Shown here one piece after another: positions 33,337-44,759 of a stretch of DNA of 64,000 nt. The stretch's first letter is position 1. Every line of letters begins with the position of its first letter. The notes beneath the pieces are model-generated. The model did not search any database, was not told the DNA's origin, and saw only the letters and a list, made by a program, of their open reading frames with translations. The stretch covers positions 1,568,001 through 1,632,000 of the forward strand of contig CBDFJG010000003.1 in assembly GCA_965248445.1 (NCBI GenBank), in the 5' to 3' direction. The position numbers were made by a program, and so were the translations under genes. The DNA is from Planctomycetota bacterium. GTDB taxonomy: Bacteria > Planctomycetota > JAJSAM01 > JAJVHW01.

Positions 33337-36300
33337 CTACACCGTGACGGGGAGTGCGTTCTCGCTGTACGCGGTCTCGAGAGATGCGTCCACGACGCAC
33401 TCGTATCCGTCTGCGGACAGCAGGACGGCCCCGTCGGCTTCGACGAACGCCAGATCCGCCGTGGCCGCGCTGTTCACCGTGCGGCGCACGTTGGCGACGA
33501 CGCGGACGCCGTCCCGCGGCAGGGACGACGCGTACATACGCAGCCGCCCGATCGCCGTCGGGAGTGAGGGAGCGCCGCGCGTGGCGCGCGTCCAGAGCAC
33601 CATCAGCTGGAACGCTCCGTCGAGCGCCAGCGGATCGGTGACGAAGCGCCCGCGCAGCGGTGACTCCATCCAGTCGCCGGGACGCGGCGCCGTGGCGACG
33701 TCGCCCACGATTCCGTCCGGACCGCAGGCGTCGACCTTGCGGATCGCACGCAGTAGCGGACCGTGGAACAGCTGGTCGGGGTAGAGAGCCCCGCTCCCGA
33801 TCGGCTCCCCCGCCGGCTGTTCGGGCGCAGCGGGTGCGGCCGGGAGCTGATCGACAAGCAGCGCCGTGGCGCGGGCGTGCAGTACGTCTCCCCGGGGACC
33901 GGCATCGCTGCGCAGTTCGACGGACACTCTCGACACGCCGTCTGCGTCAGCGTATGGGGCGGCGGACACGTGCACACGAACCCGCGCACTCTGCTCGGCC
34001 GTCAGCTTCAGGCCGTTCAGGACGCGCAGGTCGTCGAGACCGTGGAAGCGCAATCCCGGGTTCACGTGCAGTGCCCCGTGGGCCATCCACTCGATCATGA
34101 GGACGACCGGCAGGACGGCCTTGCCGCCGACCACGTGGTCGCGCAGGACCGGGTGAGACGCGATGTCGACAGAACGCTCGAACGCCACCGGCGCAGCCGT
34201 GATCGGCGCGGGCGGTGCGAGCGCAGCGCTGCTGCCTTCGCCAAGCACCACGACCTCGACCGCGCCACCGACGCTGGCGCGCGCCTCGCGCACGACATGA
34301 CGGGCACCGACCGCGCGGTCGATGACCTGGATGCCCTCGTCCTCGAACACGCGGCGCAGCGACGCGTCGACCATGCCGCCGTCCCATGGTCCCCAGTTGA
34401 CGGAGACGACGCGGCACGCCGGACGGCCGACCGCCTCTCGCTGCGACATCTTGTTGAGGACCTCGTTCGCTGCCGCGTAGTCGATCTGGCCCGTGCGGCC
34501 GAAACGGCCTGTCGACGACGAGAACACGACGAGCAAGCGCAGGTCCTCGGGTTCGTCCGCGGACGCCGCATCGAGCAGCGCACGGAGGCCGTCCACCTTG
34601 GTGCCGTAGACGCGGTTGAACTCCTCGATCGTCTTGTCTTCGATGCGACTGTCGGCGAGCACGCCGGCGCCGTGCACGATCCCGCGTACGGGGCCGTGGG
34701 TCGCGCGCGCGTCGGCGACGGCCGCGGCGACCGCCTCGGGGGAACGCACGTCGCACGGTGCGTAACGGACCTCCGCGCCGGCCTCGCGCATCCGGTCGAG
34801 GTTCGCCCGCGCCTCGCGCACGGCGAGCACACGGCCGACCGCGTCCTTGGCGGCGCGGGGAGAGCCGCCACCGGTTCCGCGCGCGATCATCTCTCGCAAC
34901 AGCGAGCTCTCGTCGGCGAGTCCGGCCATCCACGCGGGCTCGTCATCGAGCGTGCTGCGTCCGAGGACGAGCAGCGCGGGCACGAACTCGGCGGCGAGGG
35001 CGACGGCAACGTCCGCCGTCACACCGCGGGCGCCGCCGCTCACGACCACGAGGTCACCCTTGGCGAGAGGTGTGGCGTTGCCGTCCTCGAGCGCCTCCGC
35101 GCGCAGCGTCGGAACCATGCGGATACCCGGTGCGAAGAGACCGACTTCCGTCGGCTGCGCGAAGAACGCCTCCTCGACGATGGCGGCGGCAGCCGTTTCG
35201 AGGTCCTCGGCATCGGGTGCGACGTCGAGCGCGCGGCATGTGACGCCGGGCCACTCGTGAGCGGCAGTCTTCGCGAATCCCGCCAAGCCGGCTGTGGTCG
35301 TGTCCGCGCCGTTCATGGCCTTCAACCCGAACGCTCCGTCGAGACGCGACACCGTCACGAACAGACCGCGCGCCTCACGGAGTGCGGGCGCCGCACGGAC
35401 GAGCAGCGACAGCGTGTCGCGCAGGAACGCGTCGCCCGCTCCGCGGGATGGCGCGACGACGAACAGACCCGCAAGGCGCTCCGGCAGATCACCGGCGTTC
35501 TGCACGGCAACCACCTGGGCCGTGTGGCCGTGGTCCTGCAGCGCCGCTGCGACCGCAGCGCCGAGGCCGTTGCCGTCGCAGGCCACGAGGATCGTGCCCT
35601 CGCCCGGCGCGACGCGCTCGCGCACGTCGCCGTTCAGGTCGACCGTCGTCAGCACGTGCCGCTCGATCGCCGCCGGCGCCGCGGTCGGCGCGGGAGCGAC
35701 GGACACCGGCGCAGGAACCGCATCGCCGGAACCGCCCAGTTCGGAGACGACATCGCCCAGTGTGCGCAGAGCGCCGAGCCGTTCGCTCGCCACCGCGGGC
35801 AGGGACGGCACGCGCTCCTGCATCGCCGAGAGGATCTCGACGCGCTTGATCGAGTCGATGCCGAGGTCCGCATCGAGCTCCATGTCGAGGTCGAGCATCT
35901 CGACCGGATAGCCGGTCTTCTCGCACACGACCTCGAGCAGCAGCGAACCGAGATCGGGACCGGACGACGCGGCATCGGCCTGCACGGGCGCGGACGCGGC
36001 GACGGGCAGTTGACCCAGTTCGGCGACGACGTCGCCCAGCGTGCGAAGTGCACCGAGACGATCGCTCGCAACGGCCGGGAGCGACGGGACGCGCTCCTGC
36101 ATCGCCGAGAGGATCTCGACGCGCTTGATCGAGTCGATACCGAGATCCGCGTCGAGTTCCATGTCGAGGTCGAGCATCTCGACCGGGTAGCCGGTCTTCT
36201 CGCACACGACCTCGAGGAGCAGCGGACCGAGGTCCAGACCAGCGGCGGGCGTGGGAGTCGGGGCTGCGGCCGGCGCGGCGATCGGTGCGATCGGCGGCGC

Positions 36301-39300
36301 CACGAGCGCAGGTGCGGGAGCCGTGATCGGTGCGGCTACAACCGCGCCATCTGCGTGAGCAGATGGGCCAGAAGGCAATCCCAGCAGGGCCTCCTGCTGG
36401 CGGAGCAACGTCTCGAGGGCGCGCTGTGCGGCCTCCTGGCCCTCGAGGAACCGCCGGTGAACATCGGCGGTCTGCTCCTGCATGCGGAGGAGCGCGGTCA
36501 TCTGCTCGCGCAACGAGGCGAGCGCCGCGCCGCCTTCCGCGGCGGCACGCGGTGGCGGTTCGGCCGGTCTCCTCGTGATGGGAGACGGCGGAACGGCACT
36601 CGCCGGTGCGTGAAGCGCGGCCCCGATCGCGGGGGCGGCGAACGCGGCGGACGGAGCGGTGGCGCTGGGTGTGGGCGCTGCCTGCGGCGCGCTCGCTGGC
36701 ACCATCGGCGCGGCGGTGTCGCCGCGCACGACCGGCATCGGTGGTGCCTTCGGTCGCTTGGGACGGGGGTTCATCACGTTGGCTCCACAGATCGGGATGC
36801 GCAGGCGGCGCACCGCGTCGGCTTCATCGGCTTCTGGCGGACCGCCGTCGTTCCAGGCGTCCAGTGCGACGCCGTGACCACCGGCGGCGAGGCGCGCGAG
36901 GGCGACGGCGAGATCGTGCATACCGCTCCGCTTGCCGCTCGACGCGTCGAGTGCGACGGCTGCGTGCTCTCGCCCTTCGAGTATCCGTCCGACCAGCGCG
37001 GTCAGCCGCCCGCCGGGTCCGACTTCGAGGAAGGTGTGCACGCCGTCCGCGTGCATGCGTTCCACGAGGCCCGTCCAGTCGACGGAATTCACGAGTTGCC
37101 CGGCGAGCAGATCGCGCGCGGCGTCGGCGTCTTCCGCATACGGCTCCGCGGTCGTGTTCGCGTAGACCGGCGTCTCTCCCGCGAACGGAAGGTCGGCGAG
37201 AGCGTCACGCAGCGGACGGGCGGCGTCCGCCACCAGCGGGGAGTGGAACGCGGCGGACACCGGCAGCAGGGTCGCGCGGACTCCCTGCTCTGCGGCGAGC
37301 TCCTGGGCCCGCTCGATCTCCCGGCGTTCGCCGGAGACGACCGTTTGCACCGGCGCGTTGAGGTTGGCGATCGAGAGACGCAGTTCGCCGTCCTCGACGA
37401 ACCGCACCGCACCGTCTCCGTCCAGCGCGAGAGCCAGCATCGCCCCGCGGCCGCCGTCGCCGTCCGCCATCAGAGCACCGCGGAGACACGACAGTTCGAT
37501 CAGCGCCGCGGTGTTCCAGCCGTGCGCGGCCGAGAGCGCCGACAGTTCCCCGTAGCTGTGTCCGGCGTATGCCTGCGGCGCCAGAGCGAACGTCCCGATC
37601 AGCGCGGCGAGCGCGCCGACGCTGACCGCGCCGATGGCCGGCTGCGCGACGCGCGTGTCGCGGAGGAGCTTCTCGGCGTGCCCCCGGACGATGTCGTTCC
37701 ACTGGTTCTGCGGGAAGATGCGGTCGGACAGTTCCATCCCGACCGTCACGCCCCCGGCGAGACCGCTGGCCGCCAGCTCGAATGCCTGGTCGGCTGTTTC
37801 GAGCGCGCGCTGCACGGCCGGGAACCGGCAGGCTAGATCGCGCAACATGCCGACGTACTGCGAACCCTGTCCCGGGAACAGCACTGCGAGCTTGCCGATG
37901 AGAGAGCCGTGTCCGAAGTGTGCGCCGTCCGGCGTGCTCCACTGCTTCGCCTTCGGACGGCTCTTCAGCATTGCCTGCGCGTTGTGGAGCTGTGAGCCGA
38001 GGTCGGTGCGGTCGCGCTCGATGACGAGAACCAGCCGGTTGTCCGCGAGCGGATCGAACCGGCCCCGTGCGTCGGCCGAGCGGCGGGCGAGTTCGTCCCA
38101 CTCGATCTCTGCCGGGAACGCGGCCACTGTTGCGCGGAGCTCCTCTACCGACGCAGCGGCGAACGGCAGGATCTCGACGTCGGGGTCCCAGTCGATGCCG
38201 GGCTTCTCCGACCGATGTTCCTCGAGCACGCCGTGGAAGTTGCTGCCTCCGAATCCGAACGCGCTCAGCGCGGCGCGGCGCGGATGTGCGACCCGCCGCA
38301 GCCACGGACGCTTCTCGGTCGGAAGGTAGAACGGCGACTCACCGTCTGCGAGCGGCTCGAGCGGATCCGTGATTCGCAGCGTCGGCGGGACCACCTTGTG
38401 GAACAACGCCAGCGCGGACTTGATCAGTCCCGCGATGCCGGCGGCGGCTTTGGTGTGTCCGATCGCGGACTTCACCGAACCGAGCGCAGCCCACTGCCCG
38501 TCCGTACGAGAATCGCGGTACACCTCGGTCAGCGCGGCGAGCTCGGTCGCGTCGCCGACCCGCGTCCCGGTGCCGTGAGCCTCGACCAGTTCGACCGTCT
38601 CGGGCGAGACGTCGGCTGCGGCATACGCGCGACGGAGCGCGCGCATCTGGCCGTCGGACTTGGGCGCGTAGACAGCGCCGCCCTTGCCGTCGCTAGAAGA
38701 GCCGATGCCCTTGAGGACTGCGTAGACGCGGTCCCCGTCGCGCTCCGCGTCCGCCAGCCGCTTGAGCACGACGATGCCGACGCCCTCGCCGAGGATCGTC
38801 CCGTCGCCGGCGCAGTCGAACGGACGCGCGGCGCCCGTCGACGACAGTGCGGTCGTCTTGCTGAAGCACATGTACATGAACACGTCGCTGAACGTGTCGA
38901 CACCACCGGCGAGCACCATGTCGCTCTTGCCGGATGCGAGTTCCATCGAAGCGACGTGCAACGCGCCCATCGAACTGGCGCACGCGGCGTCGACGACACA
39001 GTTGGTCCCGTGCAGGTCCAGCCGGTTCGCGATGCGTCCGGCCACGACGTTGCCGAGCAGGCCGGGGAACGAATTCTCCTGCCACTCGGGGTAGCTGTCG
39101 GAAATGCGTGCCACGACGTCGTCAGCGAGTTCCTTCGGTACGCCCGCTTCGGCCAGCGCGCGGCGCCACACCGGGTGACCGAGACGTGCACCCAAGGGGA
39201 TGACAAGCTCGAGAGCGCCGGTGACGCCGAGAATCACACTCGCGCGATCGCGGTCGAACGTCTTGCCGTTCTTGCCGTAGCCCGCGTCGCGCAGAGCGCG

Positions 39301-39642
39301 CTTGGCTGCGACGAGTCCGAGCAGTTGCGACGTGTCGGTCGCCTCGAGGTCGCGCGGCGCGATGCCGAACTCCATCGGGTCGAAGTCGATCGCGTCGAGG
39401 AAACCGCCCTTCGCTCCGTAGAGCATGTCGCGGGACTTTGGGTCCTCGGCGAGATACGACTCGACGTCCCAGTGCGTCTCCGGAACGTCGGTGATCGCGT
39501 CGACGCCCTTCTGGAGGTTCTGCCAGTAACGCTCGAGCCCGTCGGCCTTGGGGAACATCGCCCCGATGCCGACGATCGCGATCGGGACGGAACTCCCGGT
39601 CACGGGACGGTCGATGGGCGTGGCGTCGGTCGTGTCGCTCAT
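33337..39642 (-). CDS. pfaA: PUFA synthase subunit PfaA/Pfa2 (KS-AT-ACP-ACP-KR-DH)
   Basis: WQENSFPGLLGNVVAGRIANR, DAACASS, HGTGT, GHSYG, two LGIDSIKRVEIL ACPs, GGARGVT (KR), HVVGGKAVLP (DH). ATG 39642 is coupled to the pfaD stop. Confidence 0.93.
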   Translation of the reverse strand: MSDTTDATPIDRPVTGSSVPIAIVGIGAMFPKADGLERYWQNLQKGVDAITDVPETHWDVESYLAEDPKSRDMLYGAKGGFLDAIDFDPMEFGIAPRDLEATDTSQLLGLVAAKRALRDAGYGKNGKTFDRDRASVILGVTGALELVIPLGARLGHPVWRRALAEAGVPKELADDVVARISDSYPEWQENSFPGLLGNVVAGRIANRLDLHGTNCVVDAACASSMGALHVASMELASGKSDMVLAGGVDTFSDVFMYMCFSKTTALSSTGAARPFDCAGDGTILGEGVGIVVLKRLADAERDGDRVYAVLKGIGSSSDGKGGAVYAPKSDGQMRALRRAYAAADVSPETVELVEAHGTGTRVGDATELAALTEVYRDSRTDGQWAALGSVKSAIGHTKAAAGIAGLIKSALALFHKVVPPTLRITDPLEPLADGESPFYLPTEKRPWLRRVAHPRRAALSAFGFGGSNFHGVLEEHRSEKPGIDWDPDVEILPFAAASVEELRATVAAFPAEIEWDELARRSADARGRFDPLADNRLVLVIERDRTDLGSQLHNAQAMLKSRPKAKQWSTPDGAHFGHGSLIGKLAVLFPGQGSQYVGMLRDLACRFPAVQRALETADQAFELAASGLAGGVTVGMELSDRIFPQNQWNDIVRGHAEKLLRDTRVAQPAIGAVSVGALAALIGTFALAPQAYAGHSYGELSALSAAHGWNTAALIELSCLRGALMADGDGGRGAMLALALDGDGAVRFVEDGELRLSIANLNAPVQTVVSGERREIERAQELAAEQGVRATLLPVSAAFHSPLVADAARPLRDALADLPFAGETPVYANTTAEPYAEDADAARDLLAGQLVNSVDWTGLVERMHADGVHTFLEVGPGGRLTALVGRILEGREHAAVALDASSGKRSGMHDLAVALARLAAGGHGVALDAWNDGGPPEADEADAVRRLRIPICGANVMNPRPKRPKAPPMPVVRGDTAAPMVPASAPQAAPTPSATAPSAAFAAPAIGAALHAPASAVPPSPITRRPAEPPPRAAAEGGAALASLREQMTALLRMQEQTADVHRRFLEGQEAAQRALETLLRQQEALLGLPSGPSAHADGAVVAAPITAPAPALVAPPIAPIAAPAAAPTPTPAAGLDLGPLLLEVVCEKTGYPVEMLDLDMELDADLGIDSIKRVEILSAMQERVPSLPAVASDRLGALRTLGDVVAELGQLPVAASAPVQADAASSGPDLGSLLLEVVCEKTGYPVEMLDLDMELDADLGIDSIKRVEILSAMQERVPSLPAVASERLGALRTLGDVVSELGGSGDAVPAPVSVAPAPTAAPAAIERHVLTTVDLNGDVRERVAPGEGTILVACDGNGLGAAVAAALQDHGHTAQVVAVQNAGDLPERLAGLFVVAPSRGAGDAFLRDTLSLLVRAAPALREARGLFVTVSRLDGAFGLKAMNGADTTTAGLAGFAKTAAHEWPGVTCRALDVAPDAEDLETAAAAIVEEAFFAQPTEVGLFAPGIRMVPTLRAEALEDGNATPLAKGDLVVVSGGARGVTADVAVALAAEFVPALLVLGRSTLDDEPAWMAGLADESSLLREMIARGTGGGSPRAAKDAVGRVLAVREARANLDRMREAGAEVRYAPCDVRSPEAVAAAVADARATHGPVRGIVHGAGVLADSRIEDKTIEEFNRVYGTKVDGLRALLDAASADEPEDLRLLVVFSSSTGRFGRTGQIDYAAANEVLNKMSQREAVGRPACRVVSVNWGPWDGGMVDASLRRVFEDEGIQVIDRAVGARHVVREARASVGGAVEVVVLGEGSSAALAPPAPITAAPVAFERSVDIASHPVLRDHVVGGKAVLPVVLMIEWMAHGALHVNPGLRFHGLDDLRVLNGLKLTAEQSARVRVHVSAAPYADADGVSRVSVELRSDAGPRGDVLHARATALLVDQLPAAPAAPEQPAGEPIGSGALYPDQLFHGPLLRAIRKVDACGPDGIVGDVATAPRPGDWMESPLRGRFVTDPLALDGAFQLMVLWTRATRGAPSLPTAIGRLRMYASSLPRDGVRVVANVRRTVNSAATADLAFVEADGAVLLSADGYECVVDASLETAYSENALPVTV
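35735..36230 (-). repeat. Tandem near-identical ACP-coding repeats inside pfaA
   Basis: Two ~215-nt copies encoding LLLEVVCEKTGYPVEMLDLDMELDADLGIDSIKRVEILSAMQERVPSLPAVAS(D/E)RLGALRTLGDVV. Confidence 0.9.
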
Positions 39643-41306
39643 CCCATCCGTTCCTCGAGGTCCGCTCGCGGAAGCGCACGAACGTCGTCCGCTCCAGGGG
39701 GCAATGTTACGCCCTGAGCCCGCAGACTCACCGTTCGCGTGAGAACCGCCGCACCCTGAAGCAGGTTCAGGGCTACGGTCATCACGTCGCGGTTGGCCGG
39801 CTCGGCCAGGAAGGTGCCGGCCGTCCACTCGTTGAACGCTCCCATCGCCGGGCCGCACCAGACCTGGTAGTCGACCTTCCTGGTGGGCTCCCCCCCGTTG
39901 GCCCAGGCCGACGACTGGCCGAGATACCACCGGAAGACCAGCGCCATGCGGTGCTTCGGATCGGTCGCCGCCCGCTCGATCTGGCGCGGGTCTCGTACCT
40001 CGAAGTACGCGACCGTCTCCCGCCACACCTCGTCCAGGGGCTTGCGGAGGATGCGCGTCTCGAGCTCGGTCCGCTCCTTGGCGGTCAGATCGTCGAGCGA
40101 GGCCCGTGCGCGGTAGAGGTCGAACAGCTTCTGCGCCCGCATGGCGAAGAGCGTTCCGCGCTTGAGCACCTGGACCCGCACGCCCATCTCGAACATGTCG
40201 GCGGCGGGCGCCATGACGACGTCAGCCTGCCCGGCCGCGGCCAGCATCGACCGCACCTCGTCCGAGGTGCCGGCCTCGCGGCACGCCTGGTTGACGCTGC
40301 CCGTGAGCACGTACGCCGCGCCCAGTGCGAACGCGGCTGCGGCCGACGCCGGCGTCGCAATGCCTCCGGCGGCGCCGACACGCAGTGGGATGCCGTAACC
40401 GTGCTCGCTCGCCATCCGGGCCGCCAGCGCGCGCATGGTCGGGATGAGCGCGATGGCCGGACGGTTGTCCGTGTGGCCTCCGGAGTCCGCCTCGGCGGTG
40501 ATGTCCTGCGCCACCGGAACGTTCGCCGCGAGATCCGCCTGCTCGCGGGTCAGGTCGCCCCGTCGCACGAGTTCGTCCACCATCGCGGCCGGTGCGGGCG
40601 ACAGGAACTGCGAGGCCACCTCGACGCGGGAGACCTTGGCCAGGACGCGGTTCGGCGTGACGACCGAGCCGTCGGGCCCTCGCGCAATCCCCGCGAGCCG
40701 GTAGCGGACGAGCGGCAGCGTCAGCCCGAGGTACGCCGACGCGGACACGAGCCGCACGCCCTGCCGCACGTACAGGTCCGCAACCGCCTTCTCGACGGCC
40801 GGTTCGTTCGGACTGTGGATGAGGTTGAACCCGTGCGGCAGCCCGCCGACGGTGCGCTGCAACCGGTCCACGGCCGCCTCGACCTTGCCAACCGGCAGGC
40901 CCGCGGCGCCGAAGAACCCCACGCACCCAGCCCGTGCCATCGCCTCGACAACGTCGCACGAGCCGATCCCGTTGGCCATGGCCCCCGCCACGTACGCGAA
41001 GCGAAGCCCATGTTCCTCGCGGAACGAGGCGTCACCGAGGCTCTCGGCCCGGCACGCGGGCACGATCGCCAGAAGACGCAGCCCCTCGCCACCGTCGAAC
41101 TCGACAGATCCGCCCGTCGCGACGGCGGGCCCGTCCGGTGTAGCGACCACGACGAACGGCGTCGGGCCCGCGAGCGCTCTCTTGAGCGCACCGCGCGACG
41201 CGTCGGGGACGGTCTGTCCGCGCCACACCGCCCCCGCTGGGAGCGGCGCCGCGTCACGCGCACCCGCGTGCGGCGGGCGGACCGGGGTGGATTCGGTGAG
41301 ACTCAC
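39639..41306 (-). CDS. pfaD: PUFA synthase enoyl reductase PfaD/Pfa1 (FabK-like)
   Basis: YVAGAMANGI, AEADSGGHTDNRP, VGAAGGI, MAPAADMFEMGVRVQVLKRG, YQVWCGPAMGAFN. Confidence 0.95.
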   Translation of the reverse strand: MSLTESTPVRPPHAGARDAAPLPAGAVWRGQTVPDASRGALKRALAGPTPFVVVATPDGPAVATGGSVEFDGGEGLRLLAIVPACRAESLGDASFREEHGLRFAYVAGAMANGIGSCDVVEAMARAGCVGFFGAAGLPVGKVEAAVDRLQRTVGGLPHGFNLIHSPNEPAVEKAVADLYVRQGVRLVSASAYLGLTLPLVRYRLAGIARGPDGSVVTPNRVLAKVSRVEVASQFLSPAPAAMVDELVRRGDLTREQADLAANVPVAQDITAEADSGGHTDNRPAIALIPTMRALAARMASEHGYGIPLRVGAAGGIATPASAAAAFALGAAYVLTGSVNQACREAGTSDEVRSMLAAAGQADVVMAPAADMFEMGVRVQVLKRGTLFAMRAQKLFDLYRARASLDDLTAKERTELETRILRKPLDEVWRETVAYFEVRDPRQIERAATDPKHRMALVFRWYLGQSSAWANGGEPTRKVDYQVWCGPAMGAFNEWTAGTFLAEPANRDVMTVALNLLQGAAVLTRTVSLRAQGVTLPPGADDVRALPRADLEERMG

Positions 41307-41577: not shown

Positions 41578-42396
41578 CTATCGACGCCGCTTGCGCCGGC
41601 GATACGTTCCAGGCTCGAGATCGAGTTTCTGCAGCTTCGCGTGGAGGAACGTCCGAGCCAGTCCTGCCCGGCGTGCCACCTCGGAGACGTTGCCCCGGAA
41701 GCGCTGCAGCAGTTCGTCGAGGTACATCTTCTCGAACTGGGCTCGCGCCTCGCGAAGAGGCATCTCCATCATCGACGGCACCAGACTGGCGCTCGCGCCG
41801 GGGGACGCCGACGCCTGCGGCGGCTCCGGATAGCCAATGCCCGTGCGACGGGCGACGCCCGCGGTCGGAGCCTCGGCCACGCTGCGACCATTCCCTTGTG
41901 AGGCCGGCGCATCGACTGCAAGGAGCGCCGTCAACGCCTGGACGGGCCGGGTCGGGCCCTTCCCGCTGCGCTTCAGCTCGTCGAGGAGGTCCATAGCGGG
42001 AGCGCCGGGAACCGTGCGGTCCACGAGAACGAGACTGGCGCCGTCGAGCGCCACATGCTCTCGCGCCTTGGAGACGCTCGAGGCACCGATGACGGCGATG
42101 CCGGCAGCGCGCAGCGCCCGCACCCCCGCCTCGCGCGCCGCCGCGTCGCCGTTCACGAGAACGGCTCCCCTGGCGGCGTCTACGGTGGCGTCTACAGATT
42201 CGGAGGAGGCGGTCACTTCACGTGCCGCCAGCCTTCCGGCCTGGTCGGTTGGCATCGCGCCCGTCACACCGGAATCCCTGTTGATGGGCGCCGCGTTGAT
42301 GGGCACTGAGATAGGCACTGCGATGGGTGCGCCGTCCGCTTTCGCGGACGCGACGGAATCAGAGTGCACTCGATCGGAGTCACCGCGAGACACCAA
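41578..42396 (-). CDS. Fis-type HTH protein with a degenerate receiver-like domain and no AAA+ domain (start uncertain)
   Basis: C-terminal PLREARAQFEKMYLDELLQRFRGNVSEVARRAGLARTFLHAKLQKL; receiver-like LVLVDRTVPGAPAMDLLDELK. Confidence 0.7.
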   Translation of the reverse strand: MVSRGDSDRVHSDSVASAKADGAPIAVPISVPINAAPINRDSGVTGAMPTDQAGRLAAREVTASSESVDATVDAARGAVLVNGDAAAREAGVRALRAAGIAVIGASSVSKAREHVALDGASLVLVDRTVPGAPAMDLLDELKRSGKGPTRPVQALTALLAVDAPASQGNGRSVAEAPTAGVARRTGIGYPEPPQASASPGASASLVPSMMEMPLREARAQFEKMYLDELLQRFRGNVSEVARRAGLARTFLHAKLQKLDLEPGTYRRRKRRR

Positions 42397-42635: not shown

Positions 42636-43916
42636 TCACTCTCCACTGACAGTGGGGAGCGCGATCGTCTTCCGTTCACCCCCGCGGATGACGACGATCT
42701 CGACGCTCTCCCCGGCTGCGTGCTCGAGCCGGAACCACGACTGAAAGTGCAGTTCGCTCCGGAAGTCGGTCTTTCCGCCGACCGAGACGACGACGTCGTC
42801 CTTGCGGATGCCGGCCTTGTGCGCGTTGCGGCCGGTGTGGGCGTTCGGCCCCCAGGTCACCAGGTAGCCCACCCGGAAGGCGAACTGCTCGACCGGGATG
42901 CCGAGATCGCCCTTGGCCGCGGCGTCGATGGCGCGGCCGCCGAAGCCGGGCTTCGGGTCGAGGCGCCACATCGTGCCCCGCCAAGCCATGTCGAGCGGCC
43001 CACCCTCGCGCCAGCCCTTGGCGAGACCCCGGCGGAGAGTCCGCTCCTCCTCACCCCGGCGGACGACGAAGCTCGGCTTCCCGCCCTTCGAGGGGACGCC
43101 TTCGAGCACGGCCTGCAAGTCGCCTTCGGTGGCGATCGGCCGGTCGGCGCCGCGCAGCAGCCGGTCGCCCGCGAGGAAACCCGCCTTCGCCGCCGCCGAA
43201 CCCTCGTCCACCGACGTAACGAGTGACTGATCGTCCCTGTCGGTGTGCAGGCCGACGCGACCGCCGTCCGGCCAGCGCCACGCGTCCCGTTCGTCCCACT
43301 TGCCGTCCTCGCGGGCTCCCTCGTCGCGCGCCTGGAACACCATGTGGCAGTGGAAGCACTCCGGCCCCTTGCCGGCCTTCACGCGGCGCGCCATCGTCGG
43401 GAGTTCCTCGACCGTGCTCGGCCGGCGCTTCTTCAGCTTGACCGGCGTCAGCGCGGGGAACTCGGTGAGCGTTGTGCGCATGACGGCGGCGAGCGAGTCC
43501 ATCGAGAGATGCGACTGCGCCCCGCTCGGATCGCGGTTGCCGTAGTGGTGCAGGATGCGCCCGTCCGGCGCCATGAACAGGATGGAGAACGTGAGGTCGT
43601 AGTCGAACACGTAGGTGTTCAGGTCGACGCCTTCCATGTTCATGATGCGAACGCACTCGAACTCGCGGGAGAGACGCGCGATCTCCTCCGGCGGCTGACG
43701 GACCAACTGCCCGTCGAACGCTTGCGCGTCCTTTCAAGGGTCTCAACGGAAGACGACCATCAGTGGCCGGCCCTTGTCCGCCGCGTCCGCCCGCGCGGCT
43801 GTCAGGTCCTGCCGCCACTGGATGGTGACGGCCTGGTCCTCGGCGGTCGCGAACGCGGCGAACCCGGCGACCACCGCCCCGAGGAGCAGCAAGGCAAACG
43901 TGTAAGCTCTCGGCAT
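42636..43916 (-). CDS. Secreted thioredoxin-like / c-heme / PDZ selenoprotein with a UxxU motif (Sec58, Sec61)
   Basis: In-frame read-through TTC CGT TGA GAC CCT TGA AAG GAC joins a signal peptide plus WRQDLTAARADAADKGRPLMVVFR to the downstream 356-aa ORF. Contains CFHCH and two PDZ-like domains. Confidence 0.85.
43697..43715 (-). promoter_or_regulatory. Candidate bacterial SECIS hairpin
   Basis: GACGGGC-AGUUG-GUCCGUC: 7-bp stem (one G-U pair) with G at loop position 2, 25 and 34 nt downstream of the two UGA codons. Confidence 0.6.
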
Positions 43917-43973
43917 GGTGCTCTCACGGTACTTGGGACCTCGCCCGAGGTACAGAGAGCCGAGGAGGCGGCG

Positions 43974-44759
43974 ATGGCAACCACCCGCGACATGCTGATC
44001 TTCACGGTCCTGGCGGTGCAGACCGCCGCCATCGGCTGGCTGGTCGTCGACCGTCTCGACCCGGGTGACTCGGGGGTCCTCGACCGCATCGACACGCTCG
44101 AGACGGGAATCGCCAAGGCGGCGCATAACTCGCGGGGTGCAGAGCTTTCCGCAGAGCGCCAGCACCGTTTCGTCGCCGCGCTGGAGCGCCGCGTGCTCGA
44201 CGTCGAGCGGGATCTGCCCGACGCAACGATGGCAGCCGACACCGCGAGCACCGAGTCACCAGAACGGGCGACTGACGACGCGGAGAGAGCGCTCACCCGC
44301 GCGAAGTCCGCGAAACTGATGCAGCGTCGGATGGAAGCCGATGTCGTCGCGCAGACCGACGTGGTCGCAGCGAAGCTCGCGAGCGTCGGCATCAAACTCA
44401 AGACGATGAAGCTACGCAGCCTGGCGGAGGAAGACCGCTGGGCGGCGGCCTCCGAGAAGGTGGGTCTCAACGACACGCAAGTCCGTGAGATCCAGGAAGC
44501 CACGCGCAACCGGGACATCGAATTCGAACGCGCGACGTCTCACGAGATCAGCACCGACGACGACGGGAGCATGCGCAAGGTCGTGCACGTCGACGCCGAG
44601 ATCCGCCAGGCCGCCGACGAGGCCTACACCGATCGAGTGAGCCGCACCCTCAACAACGAGCAGCGCAAACAGTGGCGCAGCGAGGGGTTCGAGGGCGCGT
44701 TCGGCGTCCACCGGCCGCGCGCGTCGGTTTGGGTGGACCGCCGAGGCGGCAAGCGCTAG
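43974..44759 (+). CDS. Membrane-anchored coiled-coil hypothetical protein
   Basis: GAGGAGG RBS, ATG 43974, N-terminal TM, helical body. Confidence 0.7.
   Translation: MATTRDMLIFTVLAVQTAAIGWLVVDRLDPGDSGVLDRIDTLETGIAKAAHNSRGAELSAERQHRFVAALERRVLDVERDLPDATMAADTASTESPERATDDAERALTRAKSAKLMQRRMEADVVAQTDVVAAKLASVGIKLKTMKLRSLAEEDRWAAASEKVGLNDTQVREIQEATRNRDIEFERATSHEISTDDDGSMRKVVHVDAEIRQAADEAYTDRVSRTLNNEQRKQWRSEGFEGAFGVHRPRASVWVDRRGGKR

Follow-up and report, generated by a model that had tools for sequence, protein, structure and literature searches.

A double-UGA thioredoxin/PDZ gene of Planctomycetota and a candidate spacer hairpin in front of its SECIS element

We describe an intact gene of the NF041199 family in which a single SECIS-type hairpin may serve two in-frame UGA codons, both likely read as selenocysteine (Sec), with a second, helper hairpin folding out the spacer in front of it. 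On the evidence of sequence comparison, we give this reading a probability of roughly 60%. The gene, called here the focal gene, is the UxxU Trx7/PDZ gene on the minus strand (43916-42636) of a 64,000-nucleotide stretch of Planctomycetota DNA, the window. UxxU in other families was already known. Literature searches, mostly of openly readable papers, found no UxxU in the NF041199 family and no description of a helper hairpin.

An intact frame with two internal UGA codons

Translation of the focal gene (42636..43916) yields 426 amino acids and ends at a TGA stop at 42638-36. Codons 58 (43745-43743) and 61 (43736-43734) are also TGA, 9 nt apart, in the context PLMVVFR*DP*KDA. A preliminary description of this DNA had reported both in-frame TGAs and a read-through joining a signal-peptide ORF to a 356-aa downstream ORF, with a CFHCH motif (residues 187-191) in the resulting 426-aa product, and the minus-strand translation agrees on each point. 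The product scores 369.4 bits against the NF041199 Trx7/PDZ (seleno)protein HMM (curated cut-off, 300) and covers positions 1-389 of the 390 in the profile, which places it in the Trx/PDZ (seleno)protein family that the description had mentioned. In the protein database the focal gene is represented by its C-terminal 335 residues alone, and none of 99 database matches to the protein, which are 239 to 381 residues long, covers more than 85% of the query; gene callers therefore split the gene, as had been anticipated.

Contigs from three runs of one sample show zero letter differences from the window over positions 43500-44000. They thus agree with the two TGAs, where TGC or TGT would have spoken against Sec, but they are contigs rather than the raw reads originally proposed for this check, and they are possibly the window's own source. 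A fourth run of the sample covers 130 bases of this interval, with codons 58 and 61 outside the covered part. Two stops within one frame, in a genome where insertion sequences are abundant, might suggest a pseudogene or a sequencing artefact. This explanation is refuted by the conservation of both codons, since the same two recur in 76 genes from about 30 family-level groups, in a frame that is otherwise intact, and the contigs of the three runs agree; we consider its probability negligible.

A scan for promoters and terminators around the focal gene found nothing. A divergent gene (43974-44759, plus strand) encoding a 261-aa protein without a Pfam match lies 57 bases from the focal start codon, and a gene with a Fis-type helix-turn-helix lies downstream (41578-42396, minus strand). 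Farther along the minus strand, positions 33337-41306 hold a large gene for an iterative polyketide synthase with tandem carrier domains, together with an enoyl-reductase-like gene, which we take, from their translations, to resemble pfaA and pfaD. This polyketide-synthase-like cluster is not common to the 58 long family loci, among which no conserved gene neighbours were found beyond single families.

Double UGA is the commonest form sampled in the family

The NF041199 family is present in 20 of 41 relatives and, for the phylum as a whole, in at least 135 of the 401 genomes sampled. Among the matches listed, we gathered 160 family loci; 3 without the motif and 3 duplicates were set aside, leaving 154 distinct genes. 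Columns 58 and 61 hold Cys or TGA in every one of these, so the TGA pair is not a matter of chance, and the alignment of homologs that had been proposed as a check came out in favour of the Sec reading. The census comprises 76 UxxU, 44 CxxU, 34 CxxC, and no UxxC genes. Cys thus stands at position 58 in 78 genes and at position 61 in 34, and no gene has the first Sec alone. UxxU had been called rare in the preliminary description, a view that has to be given up for this family, in which double Sec is the commonest form sampled. A tree from which the motif and hairpin codons were excluded requires about 21 switches between UxxU and CxxU.

The motif of the wider family is C/U-x-x-C/U-x-x-C. Its third position, Cys64, is kept in 141 of 154 genes; the 13 that have lost it are all Sec genes and include the focal gene (Ala64, 43725..43727), and no CxxC gene has lost it. 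A paralogue in the same genome (C3:1539388-1540575, plus strand; 29% identical) has two TGAs in the motif U-V-P-U-A-G-C and carries both hairpins described below, the helper at -10.6 kcal/mol; contigs of the three runs agree on it as well. Paralogues of the family are tandem or near-tandem in some relatives (G306:C9, G235:C242, and G117:C255).

Two reviews tabulate the family as CxxU with one Sec, citing the GOS paper; the entry in PMC9312934 reads "PDZ domain-containing protein, CxxU," and the table of the GOS paper (PMC2398784) lists a CxxU "putative secreted serine protease MucD." By its motif, its position in the table, and the cited reference, the latter is probably NF041199. The focal protein has in common with the tabulated family a full-length match, the Trx7 plus PDZ layout, and Sec at the second position; it differs in having UGA at both positions, a wider triad motif, and an invariant CxHCH. 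A single Sec in CxxU is a feature of the tables rather than of the HMM, and the focal gene departs from it. Judged by the genes gathered here, the review-table entry describes NF041199 incompletely. The protease function implied by the name MucD was considered for the focal protein and rejected, as there is no trypsin-like domain, HtrA matches cover the PDZ stretches only, and the N-terminal domain is thioredoxin-like.

Both UGA codons are very probably read as selenocysteine

The tRNA-Sec(UCA), selA, selB, and selD each score over cut-off in the focal genome, so that the proposed search for selA, selB, selC, and selD found all four; selD itself contains an in-frame TGA. Across the phylum, selA is present in 57 of 59 other UxxU genomes versus 9 of 26 CxxC-only genomes, kin among them not being independent. 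Together with the Cys/TGA columns and the SECIS-type hairpin, the complete gene set and the distribution of selA make it very probable that both UGAs encode Sec, as the preliminary description had proposed.

A genome-wide TGA scan returned 860 raw candidates, mostly noise, of which 34 were picked by hand and followed. Of the 33 besides the focal gene, 24 align through the TGA with thiol-redox or selenoprotein families; another marks the boundary of a PhoU gene, and the other 8 lack a family match. The genome therefore has at least 24 further TGA genes, plus SelD, on a hand-picked and incomplete list that includes thioredoxin-like, AhpD-like, SelW, ArsC-like, deiodinase-like, DUF3179, and DUF1223 families, and by these predictions it is selenoprotein-rich. 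A coding-like frame at C2:719266 (plus strand) without a Pfam or NCBIfam match has two adjacent TGAs (G-G-D-H-U-U-P-S-F) and a strong GU-loop hairpin 23 nt past the second.

The tRNA-ReC (SelC*) system, with its extra UCA/GCA tRNA and its own CysRS and SelB paralogues, could read one or both UGAs as Cys and so produce a CxxU or CxxC protein. According to PMC13582414, about 56% of the genomes that encode UXXU hydrogenases contain tRNA-ReC. The focal genome, 92% complete, has one tRNA-Cys(GCA) and one tRNA-Sec by ARAGORN at default settings, and one cysS and one selB over cut-off; no tRNA-ReC system was seen in it with these general models, and the only other selC-like match is a 63-nt 3' fragment. 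We therefore think it very improbable that tRNA-ReC decodes these codons. The fragment (C2:392731-392793, minus strand) is a 98% identical, inverted copy of the 3' part of selC, lies 63 kb from it, and looks like an integration-site remnant. Two identical tRNA-like elements, C2:356409-356481 (minus strand) and C4:1915915-1915987 (plus strand), lie within a 1.3-kb repeat between insertion sequences. ARAGORN at default settings misses them, and they have an apparent G3:U70 acceptor stem and a UGG-containing loop. At least three repeats of insertion-sequence size (1.5 to 1.7 kb) occur in the genome in dozens of near-identical copies each.

One SECIS-type hairpin lies within range of both codons

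The preliminary description, whose reading of the codons as Sec is very probably right, overlooked both predicted RNA hairpins. The distal one, predicted at -11.7 kcal/mol, is GACGGGC-AGUUG-GUCCGUC at +19..+37 after UGA2 (43697..43715, minus strand), with a 7-bp stem and a 5-nt loop whose second base is G. The distance to its loop is 25 nt for UGA2 and 34 nt for UGA1. The bacterial consensus calls for a loop of 3 to 9 nt with G within the first two positions, a stem of 4 to 16 bp, and a distance of 16 to 37 nt from the UGA (PMC13188914), and the focal hairpin agrees with every one of these constraints for both UGAs.

With hairpin windows that were set after the data had been inspected, a hairpin at +19..+37 of -5 kcal/mol or better is found in 75 of 76 UxxU, 43 of 44 CxxU, and 6 of 34 CxxC genes. 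GU is present in the loop or its closing pair in all 120 Sec genes, at +27/+28 in 117 of them, and the stem positions +23/+33 and +21/+35 are filled by several pair types among the family genes. The SECIS position is unchanged when the first codon becomes UGA. An independent-pair test of this hairpin had only 3 pairs to draw on.

A predicted helper hairpin accompanies the first UGA

Directly 5' of the SECIS-type hairpin in the focal gene, and abutting it, lies a predicted helper hairpin of -7.7 kcal/mol, GGACGC-GCAA-GCGUUC, at +3..+18 after UGA2 (43716..43731, minus strand). The 18-nt stretch between UGA2 and the SECIS reaches -5 kcal/mol or better in 52 of 76 UxxU genes versus 3 of 44 CxxU and 0 of 34 CxxC genes. 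Relative to synonymous shuffles, the excess is -3.1 for UxxU, +0.3 for CxxU, and -0.3 for CxxC. The UxxU paralogue has the stronger helper in all 11 genomes that hold both forms (p = 0.001), and over 11 independent tree pairs the synonymous-shuffle excess follows UxxU in 8.4 versus 0.2 (median p = 0.008). This excess was the fourth measure applied to the tree pairs; the other three, raw thresholds of -3, -4, and -5 kcal/mol, went in the expected direction and were non-significant (median p = 0.125, 0.18, and 0.125). The 73-nt stretch of the focal gene folds no better than its dinucleotide shuffles (z = -0.58). Nor is the association strict: at -3 kcal/mol a helper is absent in 8 of 76 UxxU genes and present in 11 of 44 CxxU genes.

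The 68 helpers at -3 kcal/mol or better comprise 57 distinct 18-mers in ten registers, and GU occurs in the loops of only 11. The shape of the helper, rather than its sequence, thus appears to be kept. This composition bears on whether the helper could be a second SECIS that binds SelB for UGA1, an arrangement of tandem SECIS elements that would give each codon its own signal. The 11 of 68 helper loops with GU compare poorly with the 120 of 120 distal loops, the G in the helper loop mostly comes from the Cys64 codon, and single-UGA genes with a distant SECIS carry a helper too (see below). We thus disfavour the helper as a second SECIS on its loop content and regard it as improbable.

The E. 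coli fdhF gene has a spacer of 11 nt between UGA and SECIS. Across the 68 genes, folding of the helper would reduce the single-stranded stretch between UGA1 and the SECIS stem to a median of 12 bases.

The helper goes with SECIS distance in two single-UGA families

Of the 34 hand-picked TGA genes, 27 have a GU-loop hairpin, in 24 of them at +28 or nearer. The genes with loops at +33 and +35 also have a hairpin in front; the third distant case lacks a family match. The two families represented here, a TlpA-like family and a third family, are unrelated to NF041199.

The TlpA-like family was found in 61 of 201 genomes, as 90 loci (L226-L315) that give 82 distinct motif rows, with 4 loci lacking a motif match. 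Of 74 Sec genes, 69 carry a distant GU loop, placed at +33 in 57 and at +40 in 12; the +40 class goes past the published 37-nt limit. The spacer folds better than its shuffles in 64 of these 69 Sec genes (mean, -2.0) versus 4 of 8 Cys genes (+0.3). An Arg codon that forms part of the stem is CGG in 47 of 57 cases versus 173 of 537 elsewhere, and in one gene both arms of the helper stem have changed. The helper is weak in this family, with 3 to 4 pairs and a mean of -3.7 kcal/mol, and its members are kin.

The third family was found in 15 of 301 genomes (19 loci, 18 rows). Of its 16 Sec genes, 15 have the loop at +35/36, and in each of these 15 the spacer is more stable than its shuffles; the remaining one, with the loop at +27, lacks a helper. 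The helper is therefore found in single-UGA genes with a distant loop and is absent from the one third-family gene with a near loop, which indicates that it goes with the distance of the SECIS rather than with the number of UGAs.

A spacer-folding model and its main rival

We propose that when UGA1 is in the A site, with the SECIS stem 27 nt away, folding of the helper would leave about 12 single-stranded nucleotides, and that the shortened spacer would place SECIS-bound SelB within reach of the A site. The ribosome would then move on by three codons and melt the helper, and the same SECIS would serve UGA2 across a spacer of 18 nt. Unwinding of the lower SECIS has been described (PMC4513850). 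Judged from the pattern of helpers across the family, this spacer-folding step, with the helper folded for UGA1 and melted for UGA2, is somewhat better than an even bet. Both loop distances, 25 and 34 nt, fall within the published 16 to 37 nt (PMC13188914), so that one SECIS might suffice without the helper.

The main rival to spacer folding is that the helper stimulates ribosome pausing or read-through and does not shorten the spacer, with the double Sec being real. Eukaryotic Sec codons have precedents for this, in stem-loops a few bases downstream that stimulate pausing or read-through. The helper begins about 9 to 12 nt past the UGA being decoded, and this is where mRNA enters the ribosome, whose cover extends over about 11 nt (PMC4513850). 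Neither the sequence nor the register of the helper is constrained, and slower termination would benefit two recoding events. Against pausing, the helper also occurs in single-UGA genes, where it tracks a SECIS distance of +33 to +40, and it is lacking where the loop is near, at +27/28 in CxxU genes and at +27 in the one third-family gene. We judge pausing unlikely as the function of the helper, though clearly less so than a second SECIS.

A broader proposal is that Sec recoding in bacteria depends on a further cis-element that has gone unrecognised, a spacer hairpin of no fixed sequence stacked on the 5' side of the SECIS, which telescopes the distance to the UGA; to this we give even odds. 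The consensus in PMC13188914 is of one stem-loop, and the part of that paper that sets it out does not mention a separate 5' hairpin for long spacers.

A shifted pair of predicted Sec residues, a heme c motif, and two PDZ domains

The focal protein begins with a predicted Sec-pathway signal peptide, read from the sequence (residues 1-25, ending A-T-A; 43842..43916). Of 58 long family loci, 56 have a hydrophobic 11-mer ahead of the domain, which upholds the signal peptide first proposed. A thioredoxin-fold domain follows at about residues 33-155 (43452..43820), with Pfam Thioredoxin_7 at 33-117, and then CFHCH, a predicted heme c attachment motif (residues 187-191; 43344..43358). Pfam gives two PDZ stretches, in keeping with the PDZ pair described earlier: domain 1 at residues 226-294 (43035..43241) and domain 2 at about 319-426 (42639..42962), both found by fold search as well, the second with Z 12.6 to the Deg2 PDZ (rmsd 2.5, 97 aligned). 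A structure model of residues 31-426 from a 143-row alignment (pLDDT 96.9, pTM 0.93) shows the thioredoxin and two PDZ domains. Its thioredoxin domain matches 3f9u, 2lst, and 3ph9 at Z 10-11 (3f9u: Z 11.1, rmsd 2.3, 116 aligned). Sequence matches to solved structures, among the best 60 of 121, were to PDZ domains alone.

The UGAs had been placed exactly at the thioredoxin CxxC, a register that is off by three residues. A gapless profile alignment to solved thioredoxin-like proteins sets predicted Sec61 (UGA2, 43734..43736) at the N-terminal Cys and residue 64 at the resolving Cys, so that the pair at the start of the active-site helix is U61/A64 in the focal protein and not CxxC. Predicted Sec58 (UGA1, 43743..43745) is an extra residue at the end of a core strand, three residues N-terminal of the canonical nucleophile. 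The cis-Pro is absent; by sequence-profile alignment, the Pro of 3fk8 falls on an aromatic residue, Phe110 in the focal protein. Because Cys64 is lost in 13 Sec genes and position 58 never is, positions 58 and 61 appear to be the indispensable pair, and a Sec58-Sec61 diselenide is plausible.

C187, C190, and H191 are invariant in all 154 family genes, so that the CxxCH motif noted earlier is a family feature, and H189 is kept in 153. Beyond the motif, the family has no conserved residue that could serve as a distal heme ligand; His153, present in 131 of 154, is Phe in the focal protein. Genes like CcmF and CcmC in the focal genome are partial sequences that score over the Pfam cut-off and under those of NCBIfam. 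No cytochrome was among the fold-search matches for the middle region, a part of the protein that this search barely covered; modelled separately, the heme region reached pLDDT 40 and was set aside, and an ESM Atlas search with this region returned the family's own fragments (0.75-0.77) and no other lead.

The product may be an exported protein to which the Ccm system would attach one heme c at CFHCH. It would act as a periplasmic sulfur/thiol oxidoreductase, with Sec61 as the nucleophile and Sec58 as its partner; the partner bond would be a diselenide because Cys64 is lost in the focal protein. The heme would pass electrons in or out and the PDZ pair would hold protein clients. We give this picture of an exported heme c/selenol oxidoreductase slightly less than an even chance. 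A role as a metal or metalloid binder or sensor is also conceivable, with the triad binding a soft metal and CxHCH perhaps zinc rather than heme. Cis-Pro disfavours metal binding in thioredoxins, and here it is missing; three chalcogen residues are present in 141 of 154 genes, and the extra His189 is near-invariant while a conserved distal heme ligand is lacking. However, 13 Sec genes, the focal gene among them, have lost the third ligand, and exported CxxCH proteins are normally heme loaded in genomes with Ccm genes, a setting that the CcmF- and CcmC-like genes and the export signal of this CxxCH protein recall. We hold metal binding to be unlikely and the oxidoreductase a better, if tentative, account.

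Discussion

SelL is said to be a UxxU selenoprotein with a diselenide, and the UxxU of SelL-type proteins occupies the place of the canonical CxxC pair. The focal UxxU is shifted by three residues, and the focal protein adds a heme motif and PDZ domains. What it has in common with SelL and with the Prx-like UxxU, NF041115, and FmdB-family proteins tabulated in PMC13188914 is a predicted redox site with Sec at positions i and i+3. Heme c combined with Sec in an exported-type protein with sulfur chemistry is also seen in the multiheme selenoenzyme MccSep (PMC13510729), which may by analogy serve as a precedent for the chemistry of the focal protein; MccSep has five hemes and one Sec, and no thioredoxin or PDZ domain is reported in the abstract of that paper.

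How one in-frame SECIS serves two UGAs was posed as an open question in a 2026 paper on UXXU Group 4 [NiFeSe] hydrogenases, for which a single downstream SECIS is proposed and additional factors may act (PMC13582414). Those genes have in common with ours UGAs three codons apart and repeated CXXU/UXXU switches. They differ in that their Sec is a metal ligand in another fold and in that tRNA-ReC is enriched there and was not seen in the focal genome; a helper hairpin is not mentioned in the Discussion or the related passages of that paper.

The NF041199 family offers a natural experiment on this question: in about 21 UxxU/CxxU switches the helper is gained and lost together with the first UGA, while two unrelated families with a single UGA add a comparison of the helper with SECIS distance. 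The interest of the focal gene lies mainly in a testable spacer rule, and the gene itself belongs to a known family; a few synonymous changes would put the spacer model to the test. For annotation, gene callers shorten the commonest form of the family and tables give the wrong motif. The focal protein unites PDZ domains and a heme c motif with a predicted two-selenium site in a shifted register, and the searches turned up no relative of solved structure.

If the broader proposal is true, a telescoping hairpin would keep the effective distance between UGA and SECIS short once the GU loop is more than about 30 nt away, and spacer hairpins would account for the broad 16- to 37-nt spacing of the consensus. 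It would also guide the design of recombinant proteins that are to contain more than one Sec. Decoding of two successive UGAs by one SECIS would be a possible route to the repeated origin of UxxU.
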